64,000 nucleotides of DNA from a phage, in the sequence record PX068455.1; one strand, given 5' to 3'. This document shows positions 1 through 61,738 of this stretch, piece by piece. A program made the translations under genes and the position numbers. The first letter of the stretch is position 1. The number at the start of each line of letters is the position of its first letter. The notes under the pieces are model-generated. The model ran no database searches and was not told the DNA's origin. It worked only from the letters and a program-made list of their open reading frames with translations.

Positions 1-375
1 CGGGTCTTTGACTTCTACTAAAGGTTCTTCTGACTTGATTGCTACCCCAGTGAACCCTACACCGTGAACAACACACAGCGGATATACCACGCCCCAACGT
101 TTAACGGAACCTTCTCCTAAATCTAAGATCATGGCGTACTTACCGTTATCTTCCAGCCCATATCGAAATAAACGGGCCTCTTCACGGGTTTCAAAATCCT
201 CACGGGTGTAGCAGACGCTGTCACGGTCAGGATCGAACAACTCTGGGGCACCTACTGCCAGTGTCCAGGTTGTGTTACCTTTCTCAATAGCGCATGTGAA
301 ACCCTTCTTCTCAAGCTCTGCACGGCGGTCACGTGCTTCTTTACGAGTTTTGAAATGTTCGTAGATGAAAATCAT
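1..375 (-). CDS. hypothetical protein (N-terminal part; gene runs off the window start)
   Basis: Open minus-strand frame from ATG at 373-375 with AAGGAGA RBS at 381-387; translation begins MIFIYEHFKT. Confidence 0.4.
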   Translation of the reverse strand, partial: MIFIYEHFKTRKEARDRRAELEKKGFTCAIEKGNTTWTLAVGAPELFDPDRDSVCYTREDFETREEARLFRYGLEDNGKYAMILDLGEGSVKRWGVVYPLCVVHGVGFTGVAIKSEEPLVEVKDP

Positions 376-385
376 CTTGGTCTCC

Positions 386-2368
386 TTATTTGATGTTATT
401 CTTTGTATCAATCAGTTCACGGTATTCAATCATAGCAGGAGTGTCCCAATATTTCAAGCCTACATGCTTCAAAAGTGGATATTTCTTTTCCAATCTTGCA
501 ATATAGGCCTTCCCGCACTTAACCCGGTTGGCGATTAAGATTTTGGCACGATGATTTAGCTCACCGTACTTCCACGTGGTGCTACCTTCCCACTTGTGAA
601 AATGTGGCCGATAACTTCCAAAATCCTGCATGGGGATAATTTTACCTAACTGTCTGTACAGGCTGTCATATGAAGTTTCATTTGCTGCGCGAGTTAGTAA
701 GAATTTCCAAGCATCCTCTTTCAACAAATGTTCCACATTCTTCTCTGTAACATATTGGCAATCAGGATCAGTCCAAAGCAGACGAGATTCCGACACCAGG
801 TACAGATCTTCCCCTTCAGGAATCTGGAGTGCCGCACGCACACGGTCATAATCTTGCTGGTAGATGTTGCTCATCTGCCCTAGCCAACAACTTCCGCGTT
901 GGATATCCCCCTCATACGGTATGCAGTGCTTAATCTTCCTGAACTCTGCCTTAGTAATACGCTCACGCCGGAAGTAACCATCCTTCTCAAGTTTTTTAAC
1001 CCAATAGCCTGGTTCGTAACGGGTTTTGGTTTCACCTTTCTTCGTAGGTCGGCGTGGAAGCTCCGATAACAATTTGACCGTATCTGCAAAAAACGGATGG
1101 TGTGCCGCCTCTTTAAACTCTTTCACCAGATCCGTGTTACGGCAATAGAAAACGTTGCGTCCGGTAATCTCGCTTAAGTAGTTACACTTATTCCGGTTAT
1201 ATTTGCCGTCTCCGTCGTTAAATACTAAATAAACTCCCCGTAAGAATTCTACCTTTCCGTAGCAGGCGTAACCTATGCGGCCTTTATTTAAGCCGCCAGC
1301 GAAGATCTCGCAGTCCCCCAAATTTCCTAGCCCTGTTTCTTCCCAGCGGTCATACATAAAATTCTTACCGAAGATGTGCCCGAACACTCCACTGTTCTTC
1401 ATCATCTCGCGTGCTTCTGAGGATGTTTTTGCTGTCTCCAGTTCTGCAACAACTTCTGCTCCACGAAGGCGAATGCCTTCTTTGACAAAAGCTTCCAAAC
1501 GCTCTTGGAATCCACCATCGTCGTGACCTTCTATGGTCCATTCACGCCCTGGGTTAATATTGCAATCTCCGATAGGGATCTCTACACAAATTGCAGGATA
1601 ATCTATTAGTGTCTCCAGGAACTTAGAACGGTAAGGTTGGTGACCCATTACCACACGACTCTCGTCAGAGCTGGTATAACCCTTCAGGATGGTCATTTTC
1701 CAACCATCCTTCTCGTAGTGATACTGCGCCTCAACCTTGTCACCTTCCAGCATCTTACTGGTCATAGGGTCGGTAACGGTAAACGGAAACTTTGCATAGC
1801 GTAGGCATGACGCAATAGCAGTGCGATATTTCAGGACATGCTCTTTCTTAACATGGAACTGAACTTTTACCCCGTTGTGCTCTTCAGTCTTCCGCTCGCG
1901 GATCTTGGTAACGTTTGGGATACCCTGATCCAAGAACAATAGATATGTGCTTTCAACACCATTGTGCACACTGATAACATCGAAAGTGTCCACCATGCTG
2001 AACGGAGCCTTTGAACCAACACCTTTATTACCTACCAGAGCGTTGCTGTTGCGCTTGGTTGACTCCCCGAGGTTCATGAAAGTGTTGCGGACCATCTCTT
2101 CTGACATGCCCAATCCAACGTCCTGCACAAAGAAGTATGGTTCAAGGTCTGTAGGGGAGTGAATGATGATCGGTACATCACCCCGTCCAGACTCAACATG
2201 AGAGTCCACAGCATTGAAGATTGGTTCACGGCAGCTTGCCAGCACCTTATCTTCGTAAATCCCTTTAATGATTAGCCCAAAAGTCTCTTTGTTCAGAGAA
2301 ATTGAGCCCCTGGTGACCTCCATATTTCCGGTTAGTACTGCTTTAGTTTCATTACTGTTTACAATCAT
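386..2368 (-). CDS. Hsp90/GHKL-family ATPase domain protein
   Basis: 660-aa ORF; N-terminal Bergerat-fold motifs in HtpG-like order and spacing: ETFGLIIKGIY..REPIFNAVDS (ExxxNAxD), DVGLGM (DxGxGM), GNKGVGSKA (GxxGxG); C-terminal 450 aa unassigned. Confidence 0.6.
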   Translation of the reverse strand: MIVNSNETKAVLTGNMEVTRGSISLNKETFGLIIKGIYEDKVLASCREPIFNAVDSHVESGRGDVPIIIHSPTDLEPYFFVQDVGLGMSEEMVRNTFMNLGESTKRNSNALVGNKGVGSKAPFSMVDTFDVISVHNGVESTYLLFLDQGIPNVTKIRERKTEEHNGVKVQFHVKKEHVLKYRTAIASCLRYAKFPFTVTDPMTSKMLEGDKVEAQYHYEKDGWKMTILKGYTSSDESRVVMGHQPYRSKFLETLIDYPAICVEIPIGDCNINPGREWTIEGHDDGGFQERLEAFVKEGIRLRGAEVVAELETAKTSSEAREMMKNSGVFGHIFGKNFMYDRWEETGLGNLGDCEIFAGGLNKGRIGYACYGKVEFLRGVYLVFNDGDGKYNRNKCNYLSEITGRNVFYCRNTDLVKEFKEAAHHPFFADTVKLLSELPRRPTKKGETKTRYEPGYWVKKLEKDGYFRRERITKAEFRKIKHCIPYEGDIQRGSCWLGQMSNIYQQDYDRVRAALQIPEGEDLYLVSESRLLWTDPDCQYVTEKNVEHLLKEDAWKFLLTRAANETSYDSLYRQLGKIIPMQDFGSYRPHFHKWEGSTTWKYGELNHRAKILIANRVKCGKAYIARLEKKYPLLKHVGLKYWDTPAMIEYRELIDTKNNIK

Positions 2369-2865
2369 TTATTGCGCTCCTTGTAGTAGATATGACTCCC
2401 GAACTGAGCTGTCCTCTGCATCTTTTTTGCCCATTTCGGTCGTACTTTGGTTGTATGGTAGTGTGTTGCTCCACCTGTTATGTCCATAGCCATGTATGCA
2501 ACATGGTTGTTATTATAGACCTTTAGAAGCATCTTTGCAAGACTTTTAGCGTGATCCCATGAATCTTTTTCTGTCACCTTAAAAGTTTTGCCGTGGTTTG
2601 TCCACGAAAACTGGTTAGGTTGGTAGACAATCTTTCTTATGGTGTCTGGGTATTTGGGGTGAGATTTCCTGTTTAGGGTGGCAAACCCAGATGCCAGCAT
2701 ACCCATCGTGCCATCCCCTCTAGCTTCCCTGTAGATATTGCATGCTAGAATGTTTTCCTTAGTATCTGATGGCTTGCAAGTATGGTATACTTTTTGTTTT
2801 GGTGCTGCAACAACAGGCAGCGATAAAAATGCGCTCAAAATAATAGCAAAGATCTTAATTTTCAC
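2365..2865 (-). CDS. secreted cell-wall hydrolase, SleB-like (candidate lysin)
   Basis: 166 aa, GTG start; N-terminal signal-peptide-like segment KIFAIILSAFLSLPVVAAP; SleB-type motifs NIYREARGDG and QPNQFSW. Confidence 0.65.
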   Translation of the reverse strand: MKIKIFAIILSAFLSLPVVAAPKQKVYHTCKPSDTKENILACNIYREARGDGTMGMLASGFATLNRKSHPKYPDTIRKIVYQPNQFSWTNHGKTFKVTEKDSWDHAKSLAKMLLKVYNNNHVAYMAMDITGGATHYHTTKVRPKWAKKMQRTAQFGSHIYYKERNK

Positions 2866-2878
2866 AATAACTCCAAAT

Positions 2879-2902
2879 AGAAAATCCCCGCCGAAGCGGG
2901 GG
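2879..2902 (-). terminator. intrinsic terminator, CCCCGC-UUCG-GCGGGG hairpin plus U-tract
   Basis: Perfect 6-bp GC stem with UUCG tetraloop on the minus-strand transcript, followed by AUUUU; lies between 2915..3295 and 2365..2865. Confidence 0.6.
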
Positions 2903-3304: not shown

Positions 3305-4489
3305 TTAAGCTTTAGCCAAAATGGCGCTAAACTCTTCACCAAACTCTTTTACAATCTTCATCAGGTTTGGGTATGCTTTGATCAGCTGAGCAACGATCTT
3401 GTCACGACCTTTACCGATAAGCAAGGCATTTCCTAAGGCATTAGGTTTCATCATCGCCATAAAGACTGAAAATACAAAATCTCGGTTCTCGTCCTTGAAG
3501 TTTTCCCAAAGGAAATCGAGAAAGTTTGCCACACAGCTAACAAGATCTTCGTCGGAGATACTTGCATTTTCCATCATATTACGAATAGCGATGCAACCTT
3601 CAGATCCAAGAATCCACAAGATGTCTGGCTGTTTAGGACCTACGTATTCTTTGCAACCTCCTGCCATAATCCGACCGATTTCCGGTAAGTTGCGTTTCTT
3701 GGTGTGGTAAGTCCAGATCTCTACCGCTGCAGTGTGACCAATAGCACCTTGCAGAAGAACACGGGCCATAGCGTCAGAAATAATACCGCTGTCAAAATCG
3801 TGCAAGATATCAGATGCAGCAACCCAAGATCGCGGTGTGGCAAAAGATGGACAATTAATCTCAGCCATGGCCTCATAATTATCGATAGCTGATGGAACTC
3901 TTTTCAGATATCCAATTACAGAGGAGTGCACCCCATTAAGGAATGCGTAGTCCTCAATAAACACCTCTGCATTGCTTGTAACCTCTACAATGATAAAACG
4001 GTTAGCCAGAGGGGCTTCGAGCGCCGAAAGAACCGCACCATCTGTAGAACGGTTACCAGCAGCCACAAAAACAGACCCCTTAGGGAATGCATAAGTACCG
4101 CACTTGTGGTCAAGCATAATTTGCATTGCAACCTTTTGTAGGTAGTTATCTGCATGAGTGAGCTCATCCAGAAAGATAATTCCGCTCCAGTCAGGATCCG
4201 CAGGCCAAAATTCTGGAATTGCAAACACTGTACGTGTAGTTCCATCCGCTTCTACAGGGATAGGTAGCCCAGATAAGTCGGCAGGATCTTTATCTGACAG
4301 CCGCACGTCAACAAGGTTGTCATCTCGCTCACCGAACATATTATCAGCGATCTGCTTCATCACCTGGCTTTTACCTACACCCATTGGTCCCAAAATTAGG
4401 ACAGATCGGCTATGACGTTGGGCAAACTGAATAATAGCTGGCAACTCACGGACAGTGATTTGACCACTTTCGAATACGTTTCTTGACAT
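3305..4489 (-). CDS. AAA+ ATPase, MoxR/CobS-like
   Basis: 394 aa; Walker A GPMGVGKS, Walker B IIFLDE, compact single-AAA layout. Confidence 0.7.
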   Translation of the reverse strand: MSRNVFESGQITVRELPAIIQFAQRHSRSVLILGPMGVGKSQVMKQIADNMFGERDDNLVDVRLSDKDPADLSGLPIPVEADGTTRTVFAIPEFWPADPDWSGIIFLDELTHADNYLQKVAMQIMLDHKCGTYAFPKGSVFVAAGNRSTDGAVLSALEAPLANRFIIVEVTSNAEVFIEDYAFLNGVHSSVIGYLKRVPSAIDNYEAMAEINCPSFATPRSWVAASDILHDFDSGIISDAMARVLLQGAIGHTAAVEIWTYHTKKRNLPEIGRIMAGGCKEYVGPKQPDILWILGSEGCIAIRNMMENASISDEDLVSCVANFLDFLWENFKDENRDFVFSVFMAMMKPNALGNALLIGKGRDKIVAQLIKAYPNLMKIVKEFGEEFSAILAKA

Positions 4490-4758
4490 TAGTAAAAGTC
4501 CTCTACTTGTGTGTAAGTGTTTTCAAAGTTTTCCAAAACAGATATCACATCGGATCTGTCAATATCATACGTGACTCTCCAGTTGTACGCAACCCTTTCT
4601 GCTGTTGCCTCTTCTGGCGCTAGTCGTCTGCTGGCATAAAAGAGTGTTGGAGTACACTTTCTTGCTTGCCCTCTAACTTTCCCATAATAATATCTGTGAA
4701 TATCTTTGTCAAAATTTAACTCTTTTTCTGCACGAAGTTCATATTGCTGGTATAACAT
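4489..4758 (-). CDS. hypothetical protein
   Basis: 89-aa ORF, start overlaps stop of upstream gene. Confidence 0.35.
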   Translation of the reverse strand: MLYQQYELRAEKELNFDKDIHRYYYGKVRGQARKCTPTLFYASRRLAPEEATAERVAYNWRVTYDIDRSDVISVLENFENTYTQVEDFY

Positions 4759-7063: not shown

Positions 7064-7609
7064 TTGATGTTGACATCTGTTGAGACAATTGATACGATTT
7101 CTTCACTTACAGAGCACGAGAGACGACGCATGAATCTTGAAAAATATTATACACCAGAAGAGTTAGAGCGCTTGCTCAAAAAATATAGACGCAAACAGAA
7201 TAACGCACGGAAACGAGATATAGAGTTCGACCTGTCATGGGAAGAATACCTCCTATTTGGTAAAAAACTTTTAGGAGATGGAGTATGCGACTATACCCTT
7301 ATACCTTTTGACATGCACACAGATGAAAACGGGCTGGGGAATCCTTTCTACCCATCTTTGGAGCGTATAGATGATGAAGGTCCTTACGCAATTGACAATT
7401 GTTGTGTGGTAGGGTTGAGGTGCAATGCTCTGAAAGACTGTCTGGTAGATAAAAAGACTGCAATCCTGATTAAAGACAAAACTGATCGAAAAATTGTCCA
7501 GCAGATGATGCTCCACCTGAGTGAAGAGCGTATGGAGAAGTTGAAAGGTGATTATACTTTTGAAGATTTCATCTTGCAATACGGGACAGAAGAAGACAGA
7601 AGAAATTGA
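7064..7609 (+). CDS. HNH-superfamily endonuclease-like protein (degenerate motif), upstream part of a split gene
   Basis: 181 aa; C-x-Y...SLERID..GPYAIDNC..C.N..K pattern typical of phage HNH modules with the His residues replaced; stops within a 10-bp tandem duplication. Confidence 0.45.
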   Translation: MMLTSVETIDTISSLTEHERRRMNLEKYYTPEELERLLKKYRRKQNNARKRDIEFDLSWEEYLLFGKKLLGDGVCDYTLIPFDMHTDENGLGNPFYPSLERIDDEGPYAIDNCCVVGLRCNALKDCLVDKKTAILIKDKTDRKIVQQMMLHLSEERMEKLKGDYTFEDFILQYGTEEDRRN

Positions 7610-7988
7610 AGAACAGACATCTGAAGAGGAAAAAGAGCCTCAGGTGGTTGAAGAGGAGATTGCAGAAGAGGTTCCTGCACTGCCTGATGATGTTGAGATT
7701 GCTAAGGCTTACACTTTCTATTGTCAAACGTTCTACGATGCAGGTATGAAAGTTGACCTGTCGTTCAGCCAATTTAAGAGTTCGTATATTCGCAAATGCT
7801 GTGCTTTAACTGGTGAACGTCTCGGAGCTGGACTTAAACCACTGTTGGTGACCGACTGGAATAAAGGTTTCACTAAAGGAAACTTTATGGTAGTATCTCC
7901 AATTATGGAGAAAGCTATGACAGATCTTATGAAGACCACCCGCATGACAATGACCGAGTTGGCAGGTATTTTCAAACACGTTAAATAA
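7548..7988 (+). CDS. second HNH-like module ORF (downstream part of split gene)
   Basis: 146 aa; acidic linker then KVDLSFSQF...C.LTGE...WNKGFTKGNFMVV resembling the module in 7064..7609; would be in frame with 7064..7609 if one 10-bp repeat copy were removed. Confidence 0.4.
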   Translation: MIILLKISSCNTGQKKTEEIEEQTSEEEKEPQVVEEEIAEEVPALPDDVEIAKAYTFYCQTFYDAGMKVDLSFSQFKSSYIRKCCALTGERLGAGLKPLLVTDWNKGFTKGNFMVVSPIMEKAMTDLMKTTRMTMTELAGIFKHVK

Positions 7989-8021
7989 TGACAGGGGCCA
8001 TTGGCCCCTTCTGGAGTTTTA

Positions 8022-9482
8022 ATGGATAGCAGAAGTTCAGAAATCATTGCCTCACAGAAAGATGATGCCCTGAGAATGTTGCAGGCTGCACGTATGTATC
8101 TCCTTGAAAAGCTGCCGTTTTATGGCACACTGCTGTCAGGATTGCAGTTCGTAGAAAACCACACATGGTGCTCCACCATGGCAACCGACCATAAACGCAT
8201 CTATTACAGCCCTGAGTTCATTATGGGATTGGCTGATGAACGCAAGGTTATTCTTAAGGCTTCTCTAACTGACGAACAGTTTGAGATGGCTGAGGTTTTC
8301 TATTCCCTCAAATCTGTGAAAGAGGTGGCTTTTCTTCTGTCACACGAGGTGGGGCATATTATCTGTGATCACCTGGTCCGTGGTAAAAGCTTCGAGCCGG
8401 AACTGTTTAATATTGCTTGTGATCATGTTATCAACACAGGTCTTGTGGTTGACTTTAGCAAGCCTCCCTGTGTTTTCTTCCCGAAGGGGAAAAGCACTAC
8501 GTTCGTGAAAGGTAAGCCTTTTGGTTTCTTAGCCAGCTGCTACTGCGACATGAGGTTTCATGGATGGATTGCTGAGAACGTCTATGCGGTTCTTGATAAG
8601 CAAAGAGATCAGAATAACGGTAAAAGTAAGAGCGGTAAAGGTGAGAACTCTCAAGGGGATAAGCGACAAACCGATGATCACATGAGTGGGAACGGTGGCA
8701 CCAGCGATGATCTTGGAAAGGCTATGGGGTATGATCAGCCACAACCTGTAATCAGCCAATCTGATAAAGATCAGGCCATGCAAGACTCTGGTGACATGCT
8801 GGAAGCAGCAATGCAAGCTTCCGGAGGTCGTTGCCCCGAGGCGGTGCGTGAGTTTGTCAAGAACAGAGGTAAGCCTGTAATCAACTATATAGACATCATT
8901 AAGCAACGCATGTTGTCTAAACGAAAGGCCGAACTGACCTACAGAAAACCTGGTCGCCGATCTGGGTCTTTGACCAGCACAATGCGAAAAGTTGGGGCTA
9001 TAAACAAGAACCAGCACGTTATTGTTCCTGGTCGTAATCCGGAAAACACCATAGATATTGTGGTAGCTTTAGACGTTTCTGGCTCGATATCTCAAAGAAC
9101 TTTAAAGAAAATGTTCAATGAAATCACCGGATTGTGCAATCTGTATAAAGAGTTTAAGGTTACAATGTTCTGTTGGTCAACTGAAGTCGGAGAGGTTAAA
9201 GTATATACTCGCGGCAACATAGACGAAATGATCAACTATGAGGTCCACTCAACATGGGGCACAACAGCTGCTTGCGTGTTCGAGTATCTGGATGCCAACA
9301 TACCAAATGCAAAAGATGTCATCGTCCTGACCGACCTATACTTTGAGCATAACTTTGAACAAAAGGCTGTTGACAACAAGTGGAAAAAGTACGATACTTT
9401 ATGGGTTCTCACCGAAGGGTATAATAAAAATTATATCCCTAGCTTTGGTAAAACTGTGGAATTAATCGAGTACGCTAAGTAA
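8022..9482 (+). CDS. metallopeptidase-like plus von Willebrand factor A (vWA) domain protein
   Basis: HExxH (SHEVGHIICDH) in N-half; vWA MIDAS motif VVALDVSGSIS in C-half; track ORF starts at TTG 8001, ATG 8022 with GGAG RBS preferred. Confidence 0.65.
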   Translation: MDSRSSEIIASQKDDALRMLQAARMYLLEKLPFYGTLLSGLQFVENHTWCSTMATDHKRIYYSPEFIMGLADERKVILKASLTDEQFEMAEVFYSLKSVKEVAFLLSHEVGHIICDHLVRGKSFEPELFNIACDHVINTGLVVDFSKPPCVFFPKGKSTTFVKGKPFGFLASCYCDMRFHGWIAENVYAVLDKQRDQNNGKSKSGKGENSQGDKRQTDDHMSGNGGTSDDLGKAMGYDQPQPVISQSDKDQAMQDSGDMLEAAMQASGGRCPEAVREFVKNRGKPVINYIDIIKQRMLSKRKAELTYRKPGRRSGSLTSTMRKVGAINKNQHVIVPGRNPENTIDIVVALDVSGSISQRTLKKMFNEITGLCNLYKEFKVTMFCWSTEVGEVKVYTRGNIDEMINYEVHSTWGTTAACVFEYLDANIPNAKDVIVLTDLYFEHNFEQKAVDNKWKKYDTLWVLTEGYNKNYIPSFGKTVELIEYAK

Positions 9483-60926: not shown

Positions 60927-61003
60927 TGGTCTCCACGGAGTGATTCGAACACTCGACCTCCTGATCCCAAATCAGGCGCTCTACCAAGCTGAGCTACGCG
61001 GAG
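60927..61003 (-). tRNA. tRNA-Pro (anticodon UGG)
   Basis: 77-nt cloverleaf read by hand: acceptor CTCCGCG/CGTGGAG, anticodon loop UUUGGGA, T-loop GTTCGAATC, CCA encoded. Confidence 0.8.
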
Positions 61004-61014
61004 TATTTATTATT

Positions 61015-61089
61015 TGGTGGCCCTGGGTGGAATTGAACCACCGTCTGGCGATTATGAGTCGCTTGCTTGAACCTTCCAGCTACAGGGCC
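61015..61089 (-). tRNA. tRNA-Met or Ile2 (anticodon CAU)
   Basis: 75 nt: acceptor GGCCCTG/CAGGGCC, anticodon loop CUCAUAA, T-arm GGTGG-TTCAATT-CCACC, CCA encoded. Confidence 0.75.
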
Positions 61090-61090
61090 A

Positions 61091-61166
61091 TGGTGCTGAT
61101 GGCAGGACTTGAACCTGCAACCTATTGATTACAAATCAATTGCACTGACAATTGTGCTACATCAGC
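61091..61166 (-). tRNA. tRNA-Thr (anticodon UGU)
   Basis: 76 nt: acceptor GCTGATG/CATCAGC, D-arm GCAC/GTGC, anticodon loop UUUGUAA, T-arm GCAGG-TTCAAGT-CCTGC. Confidence 0.8.
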
Positions 61167-61170
61167 AAAA

Positions 61171-61269
61171 GGTGCTAGGTGATGGAATCGAACCACCTAT
61201 GTATTCAACGACTACCTCGTCTATTTTCAGGATTAAAAATCCTCGCCCTTGCCAAAGGGCTTACCTAGC
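61171..61269 (-). ncRNA. atypical tRNA-like gene (about 99 nt) with non-canonical anticodon region
   Basis: Perfect acceptor GCTAGGT/ACCTAGC, canonical D-arm GCCC/GGGC and T-arm GGTGG-TTCGATT-CCATC, but anticodon arm only 15 nt and a 31-nt extra region. Confidence 0.45.
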
Positions 61270-61367
61270 GCAATATGTTGACCATGTGGCTAGTCGGCGA
61301 TGACGACTGTAACATTTGATAATCCGGTTCTGCTTCCGGCTTTCGCTTAATTACAAGGTCAACAATG

Positions 61368-61458
61368 TGGCGGAGAGTAATGGAATCGAACCATCATCGA
61401 GTTATCCTCAACGGGACGGTTTTCAAGACCGCTTGAGCACCATTGCTCCCTACCCTCC
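61368..61458 (-). tRNA. tRNA-Ser (anticodon UGA), type II
   Basis: About 91 nt: acceptor GGAGGGT/ACTCTCC, anticodon arm GCGGT-CUUGAAA-ACCGT, long variable arm, T-loop TTCGATT, CCA encoded. Confidence 0.7.
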
Positions 61459-61572
61459 TTTATAAATTACACTGATAATGACACTGATTTTCGAGCAGTT
61501 AGTGACTAGTATAAACGACGATAAATATCAATGTCATTATCTGTATGATTTATGCATTTAAAAATATAAATT

Positions 61573-61659
61573 TGGTGGGGAGTGGTGGAGTCGAACCACC
61601 CGAGTCGCAATGACAATAGATTTACAGTCTACACCGCTACCTCTACGGGATAACTCCCC
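61573..61659 (-). tRNA. tRNA-Tyr (anticodon GUA), type II
   Basis: 87 nt: acceptor GGGGAGT/ACTCCCC, anticodon arm ending ACUGUAAAUCU as in bacterial tRNA-Tyr, T-loop TTCGACT, CCA encoded. Confidence 0.75.
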
Positions 61660-61663
61660 AATT

Positions 61664-61738
61664 TGGCACCCCGTACTGGACTCGAACCAGTGTCAACGGC
61701 TTAGAAGGCCGCTGCTTTATCCACTAAGCTAACAGGGC
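61664..61738 (-). tRNA. tRNA-Arg (anticodon UCU)
   Basis: 75 nt: D-arm GCTT/AAGC, anticodon arm GCGGC-CUUCUAA-GCCGT, T-arm ACTGG-TTCGAGT-CCAGT, CCA encoded; G1-U72 wobble. Confidence 0.7.

Follow-up and report, generated by a model that had tools for sequence, protein, structure and literature searches.

Near the start of the phage DNA analyzed here (64,000 nucleotides of record PX068455.1, hereafter the window), an uninterrupted open reading frame (ORF) of 660 amino acids runs on the minus strand at positions 386..2368. We identify it with high confidence as rIIA of an rV5-like coliphage (Vequintavirus), standing beside rIIB; the gene would serve in conditional counter-defence, by what we infer to be an ATPase-clamp mechanism. 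rIIA is among the phage genes known longest. An earlier note, made from the sequence alone, had seen here an Hsp90/HtpG-like GHKL ATPase, acting either as a dedicated Hsp90 chaperone or as a GHKL-based counter-defence factor. The second option is in effect right; the first is not, and the identity as rIIA was missed.

Identity of the gene and of its partner

The whole ORF matches the PHROG family of the "RIIA lysis inhibitor" (phrog_612) with E = 2.1e-123, residues 1–658 aligning with positions 1–724 of the 725 in the profile. Against T4 rIIA, BLASTP finds 28% identity over residues 1–198 (E = 4e-21), while profile comparison with hhalign covers residues 1–316 with 99.95% probability (E = 1.1e-38). 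The C-terminal 360 residues taken alone also match phrog_612 (E = 2.3e-19), in the profile region where T4 rIIA, too, places its C-terminal half. The AlphaFold model of residues 195–660 (pLDDT 85.6) matches predicted rIIA structures in BFVD, among them those of Aeromonas phage 44RR2.8t, Vibrio phage KVP40, and RB43, with E from 4e-14 to 4e-8. The gene thus shows full-length similarity to rIIA, an N-terminal GHKL domain followed by a variable C-terminal region, and rIIB immediately downstream.

Escherichia phage ECP2303, a Vequintavirus, matches the first 10 kb of the window with 100% identity, except for one 119-nucleotide deletion outside rIIA, and the ECP2303 record annotates the gene as "rIIA protector". 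In EdH4, also a Vequintavirus, the rIIA homolog EdH4_00063 is 97% identical to that of the window (640 of 660 residues).

The start of rIIB lies 10 nucleotides past the rIIA stop, with GGAG ahead of it. Its product is homologous to the RIIB family (phrog_609, E = 1.4e-61) and shows 37% identity to T4 rIIB over 204 amino acids (E = 8e-39). The rIIA–rIIB pair is seen also in SUSP2, N4, Pseudoalteromonas phage PH357, one Rhizobium phage, and one Streptomyces phage. By tblastn, 2,643 of 50,697 phage records, spread over many host genera, contain rIIA-like sequences; hence rIIA is common among large virulent phages, and the expectation of the earlier note that such a protein would be uncommon in a phage did not hold. 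Fifteen or sixteen records labeled "Campylobacter phage" (e.g., MG065646, D1) are 93–97% identical over rIIA and its neighbors; their host labels look doubtful.

The N-terminus of the Vequintavirus rIIB (window 1..375, minus strand) contains two similar modules of about 45 amino acids, FKTRKEARDRRAELEKKGF and FETREEARLFRYGLEDNGKY. SPOR is matched weakly, below threshold (E = 0.0015), and in one GenBank relative the gene is labeled "SPOR domain-containing protein"; the N-terminus of T4 rIIB, in turn, shows weak helix-turn-helix (HTH) matches. Given this difference, the rIIB N-termini are not homologous between lineages. In Escherichia phage RB43, a single protein of 1049 amino acids (BFVD Q56C47) is described as an "RIIA-RIIB membrane-associated" fusion, and the RIIB profile phrog_609, 1055 positions long, matches the rIIA N-domain as well. 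The RB43 gene fusion supports a physical rIIA–rIIB complex.

Domains of the rIIA protein

The motifs listed in the earlier note are all present: ETFGLII at residues 28–34, REPIFNAVDS at 47–56, DVGLGM at 83–88, and GNKGVGSKA at 113–121. E48, N52, D55, D83, G85, and G87 are strictly conserved both among 24 close rIIA sequences and among 10 very diverse ones, the latter coming from T4, SUSP2, N4, Aeh1, PH357, Rhizobium, Streptomyces, and rV5-like phages; in the same diverse alignment, S103, K105, G113, G116, G118, K120, and G166 are invariant as well. That the Bergerat residues do not vary across diverse rIIA argues for a functional nucleotide site. Residues 102–107 have pLDDT below 50, fitting a mobile lid.

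The Pfam model HATPase_c_3 is matched above its threshold (E = 1.8e-8; 34.9 bits, the cut-off being 25). A search of PDB sequences with the single protein yields only TRAP1 at E = 0.1, and significance is reached with a family profile built from 24 homologs: its best 60 matches among all PDB sequences are all N-domains of the Hsp90 family (TRAP1, Hsp90, Grp94, HtpG), with the top E = 5e-9. The same profile aligns residues 28–199 to residues 15–211 of Escherichia coli HtpG with 96.8% probability (E = 2.8e-10). Because the Pfam, PDB profile, and HtpG alignments are all significant, the earlier note was right to see a Bergerat domain like that of Hsp90, and these three matches rule out a chance match of the motifs. 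The wider alternative, i.e., that the motifs arose by chance or mark a degenerate pseudo-ATPase scaffold no longer binding ATP, is very improbable: the Pfam cut-off is passed and the nucleotide-binding residues are all conserved, although T4 rIIA itself falls just under that cut-off (22.1 vs. 25 bits) and the literature searched reports no rIIA ATPase activity, containing neither an rIIA structure nor an rIIA ATPase assay.

The N-domain is of the Hsp90 type and closer to it than to the other GHKL branches, so this part of the earlier classification stands, whereas membership in the Hsp90 family fails. The Pfam scan of the ORF gives no HSP90 match, the NCBIfam HSP90 model reaches 18 bits where its cut-off is 455, and the HtpG profile alignment ends where the N-domain ends. 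An Hsp90 middle domain, which the earlier note had suggested looking for, is not seen at Hsp90 size in profiles or in the predicted structure, the second domain being MutL-sized, and neither the profiles nor the C-terminal model reveal an Hsp90 C-terminal dimerization domain. A dedicated chaperone of the Hsp90/HtpG type for phage proteins, such as virion components, could draw on the N-domain; with the family models, the middle-domain size, and the C-terminal domain all speaking against it, and with rIIA reportedly dispensable on Rex-free hosts, which largely refutes it, we consider it highly implausible.

Two other branches of the fold were tried and rejected. For a topoisomerase ATPase subunit (GyrB/ParE/T4 gp39), the Pfam scan finds no Toprim at E ≤ 0.1, and the C-terminal model, in which TOPRIM is likewise absent, matches topoisomerase only in the transducer; the topoisomerase ATPase with TOPRIM that the earlier note had named as fatal to its proposal is therefore not what lies here. 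For the histidine kinase/anti-sigma kinase branch, the single-domain CA fold with a DHp/His phosphoacceptor is not found.

The AlphaFold model of full-length rIIA has pLDDT 83.2. Comparison with solved structures gives the values 18.8 for TRAP1, 16.9 for the ParE 43 kDa fragment, 16.6 for MORC2, 16.4 for MORC3, 16.3 for the T6 topoisomerase II ATPase, 16.2 for the MutL N-terminal domain, and 15.5 for SMCHD1, with about 5 for histidine kinases in the same listing. As the structural alignments extend past the GHKL domain, residues ~26–286 form a two-domain module of the GHL type, with an S5-fold transducer directly after the GHKL domain, as in GHL/MORC proteins. The transducer contains the P-[S/G]-R-E motif, in which R275 and E276 are conserved without exception, and P273 almost so, across rIIA from T4, SUSP2, N4, Aeh1, and the Streptomyces, Rhizobium, and Pseudoalteromonas phages; hhalign aligns P-G-R-E of the window to APSRE of T4. 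By this conservation, R275 is a candidate catalytic arginine, equivalent to the transducer Lys/Arg in GyrB, MutL, and Hsp90.

Several of the structures listed belong to DNA-acting branches. A DNA-directed GHL ATPase, i.e., a MutL/MORC/topoisomerase-like clamp with rIIB as its DNA-binding partner and with escape from Rex as an indirect result of effects on replication or transcription, is nonetheless unlikely. In rIIA no DNA-binding domain is detected, be it TOPRIM, the MutL C-terminal domain, or another; the Vequintavirus rIIB has the weak SPOR-like match in place of HTH matches; the sequence profiles favor Hsp90 over the DNA-acting branches; and the published phenotypes concern abortive-infection systems that depolarize the membrane.

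The part following the N-domain, some 450 amino acids that the earlier note found not recognizable, can be assigned: residues 195–286 are the S5 transducer, and the C-terminal 360 amino acids match the RIIA PHROG and the rIIA models. A single-sequence search with residues 301–660 in 1.84 billion representatives returns 10 proteins only, all rIIA-like or fragments, so within this set no homolog outside rIIA explains the C-terminal region.

Table. Features of the rIIA locus, with positions in the window
Feature	Position	Strand	Remarks
rIIB, first 125 codons (401 amino acids in ECP2303), cut by window start; Shine-Dalgarno GGAG 382..385	1..375	-	Annotation of ECP2303 and isim
rIIA coding sequence (660 amino acids and stop)	386..2368	-	Vequintavirus ortholog of T4 rIIA
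rIIA-specific C-terminal region, residues 287–660; long helix and alpha/beta domains; diverges between lineages	389..1510	-	
Second domain, residues ~195–286: ribosomal-S5-domain-2-like "transducer" fold	1511..1786	-	
P-[S/G]-R-E motif (P273 G274 R275 E276), candidate gamma-phosphate-sensing arginine	1541..1552	-	
GHKL (Bergerat-fold) ATPase domain, residues ~26–194, Hsp90-like in sequence	1787..2293	-	
ATP-lid segment, ESTKR (102–106) to motif III GNKGVGSKA (113–121)	2006..2065	-	Aligns to HtpG KSGTK ... GQFGVGFYSAF
Bergerat motif II DVGLGM; D83 adenine contact, G85, G87	2105..2122	-	Aligns to HtpG DNGVGM
Bergerat motif I REPIFNAVDS; E48 putative general base, N52 Mg2+ ligand, D55	2201..2230	-	Aligns to HtpG RELISNASDA
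SleB/CwlJ-like cell-wall hydrolase, signal-like N-terminus	2365..2865	-	Pfam Hydrolase_2, E = 2.1e-19
Intrinsic-terminator-like hairpin CCCCGC-UUCG-GCGGGG (2886..2901; 6 GC pairs, UUCG loop) and U-tract	2876..2901	-	Consensus scan

Neighboring genes and other features of the window

The SleB-like hydrolase upstream of rIIA has a hydrophobic N-terminus (KD 2.29), and its stop overlaps the rIIA ATG as ATGA; judging from this overlap, the hydrolase is translationally coupled to rIIA. The order hydrolase–rIIA–rIIB–helicase is found also in Seunavirus SalP219. Further upstream, the terminator-like hairpin (folding energy -17.5 kcal/mol, z = -2.55), annotated as a putative terminator in the EdH4 record, sits between the MoxR block and the hydrolase, and the adjacency of the MoxR gene is not kept in the related genus Seunavirus. 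Thus, of the co-transcription proposed in the earlier note, the hydrolase part is borne out by the ATGA overlap and the Seunavirus gene order, whereas joint transcription of rIIA with the MoxR-like ATPase, despite their common strand, is doubtful given the intervening hairpin and the Seunavirus arrangement. Since the hairpin lies about 20 nucleotides upstream of the hydrolase start, the hydrolase–rIIA–rIIB messenger must come from read-through or from a promoter type outside our scan. The sigma-70 promoter scan gives 14 sites, compared with 13.4 in shuffled sequence; the sites being no commoner than in shuffled sequence, promoter assignments are unsupported.

The MoxR-like AAA+ ATPase (phrog_1297) occupies 3305..4489 on the minus strand, while a DUF2201_N metallopeptidase and VWA-like protein is encoded at 8001..9482 on the plus strand; together they resemble a MoxR–VWA pair flanking a divergent region. 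The latter gene is labeled "HNH endonuclease" by PHROG and in ECP2303, a label unsupported by Pfam. An ORF of 89 amino acids (4489..4758, minus strand) ends exactly at the start of the MoxR-like gene and is annotated as "ATPase" (phrog_13164); as it has no Pfam domain, the label may come from the neighbor.

At ~7595/7596, the window lacks 119 nucleotides that are found in ECP2303 and ECP2309, and all other listed relatives also match in two pieces. The deletion is flanked by the 10-nucleotide direct repeat GACAGAAGAA. As 119 is not divisible by 3, a gene of 346 amino acids, annotated as an anti-sigma or anti-termination factor (phrog_3118; weak Srd-like matches), is frameshifted into the ORFs 7064..7609 and 7548..7988 on the plus strand. 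The deletion could be slippage in this isolate or an assembly error.

A tRNA cluster lies at 60927..61738 on the minus strand (Pro, Met, Thr, Ser, Tyr, Arg). For a tRNA-like gene of 97–99 nucleotides within it (61171..61269), ARAGORN reports a 4-base anticodon "atcc", and the Rfam tRNA model scores only 35.5 bits; this may be a degenerate or unusual tRNA.

Counter-defence, proposed mechanism, and known systems

The GHKL domain of rIIA and the variable C-terminal region were described in 2021 by Iyer et al. (PMC7824862). In the study of Adler et al. (2025; PMC11879866), knock-down of RIIA and RIIB in T4, MM02, EdH4, SUSP1, and N4 left the infection of Rex-free E. coli unchanged, and plating was lowered on cells expressing lambda RexAB. 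In the literature, lambda RexAB is described as an abortive-infection system depolarizing the membrane. Preprints add that the rIIA/B homologs of Bas63 counter QatABCD (PMC11482910), and that bacterial CARD-gasdermin systems are triggered by sensing RIIB of T6 (PMC10312443). In the BASEL study, the rIIAB locus was seen in many large myoviruses and N4-like phages. The PADLOC defence-system models, applied here, give noise only (E ≥ 0.005, ~12 bits).

With respect to mechanism, rIIA would probably bind ATP, close its lid, and dimerize via the N-domains, as do gyrase B, Hsp90, MutL, and MORC. The gamma-phosphate would be sensed by R275 in the transducer domain. The ensuing conformational cycle would be relayed to rIIB and to the variable C-terminus, and these together would neutralize a host or prophage abortive-infection effector. 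More specifically, and only tentatively, rIIA may be a GHL clamp ATPase of the Hsp90 clade, with R275 as the sensor, in which ATP-driven dimerization of the N-domains is coupled through the C-terminus and rIIB to the neutralization of different abortive-infection effectors, e.g., RexAB or QatABCD; the rapid divergence of the C-terminal regions may then reflect target switching, and the coupling to the hydrolase may point to action at the envelope in Vequintavirinae. If true, rIIA would gain a catalytic model that is concrete and open to testing, some 70 years into the question of how the gene works.

Several points weigh against this account of rIIA as a counter-defence clamp. In the literature searched, no biochemical evidence of ATP hydrolysis or dimerization was found for rIIA. 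Neither partner has a clear transmembrane segment (maximal KD-19 of 0.93 in rIIA and a borderline 1.69 in rIIB), which bears on how they would act on a membrane-depolarizing system. EdH4_00063 is assumed by us to be the RIIA that was knocked down in EdH4 (PMC11879866). Finally, BASEL saw RexAB affect only 2–3 phages, so that for this phage the natural target may be one other than Rex.

Given the public rIIA annotation, the published GHKL domain, and the Rex phenotype of a 97%-identical ortholog, the finding is a rediscovery: the rIIA identity, the GHKL domain, and the Rex-conditional phenotype of the ortholog are already known. New here are the S5-fold transducer domain and the family-invariant P-[S/G]-R-E of rIIA. 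The remaining value lies in the structural picture, i.e., a GHKL domain resembling that of Hsp90, a minimal S5 transducer in which an Arg-Glu pair is invariant, and a lineage-specific C-terminus, which provides the point mutants E48A, D83N, and R275A for probing ATP turnover in counter-defence.

Compared with T4, both rIIA proteins have the N-terminal GHKL domain, the second domain with P-S/G-R-E, and a long helix, with homology over residues 1–316; both match the same PHROG at full length, and in both phages rIIB is directly downstream. They differ in length (725 amino acids in T4, 660 here) and in the C-terminal halves, where pairwise alignment fails, the 28% identity being confined to the N-terminal 198 amino acids. 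The gene context differs as well: in T4 the gene follows rIIA.1 and gene 60, whereas here it is coupled to an upstream secreted SleB-like hydrolase. T4 rIIB has 312 amino acids, compared with 401 in Vequintavirus, and another N-terminus.

With the Hsp90 family (HtpG, TRAP1, Grp94), rIIA shares the Bergerat fold with helix 1, the RE..N..D, D.G.G, and G..G.G motifs, and the lid lysine, and this family provides the best sequence and structure match of the rIIA N-domain among solved proteins. Unlike these proteins, rIIA shows neither a middle domain of Hsp90 size (~250 amino acids) nor the C-terminal dimerization domain, fails the family models, and is reportedly dispensable on Rex-free hosts. The minimal GHL/MORC module (MutL N-terminal domain, GyrB/ParE 43 kDa, MORC2/3, SMCHD1) differs from rIIA by TOPRIM, endonuclease, CW, or coiled-coil insert, none of which was found in rIIA, whose C-terminal ~370 residues are peculiar to it; the fold of residues 195–286, in turn, is like that of the transducer domains of MutL, Hsp90, MORC, and topoisomerase II.
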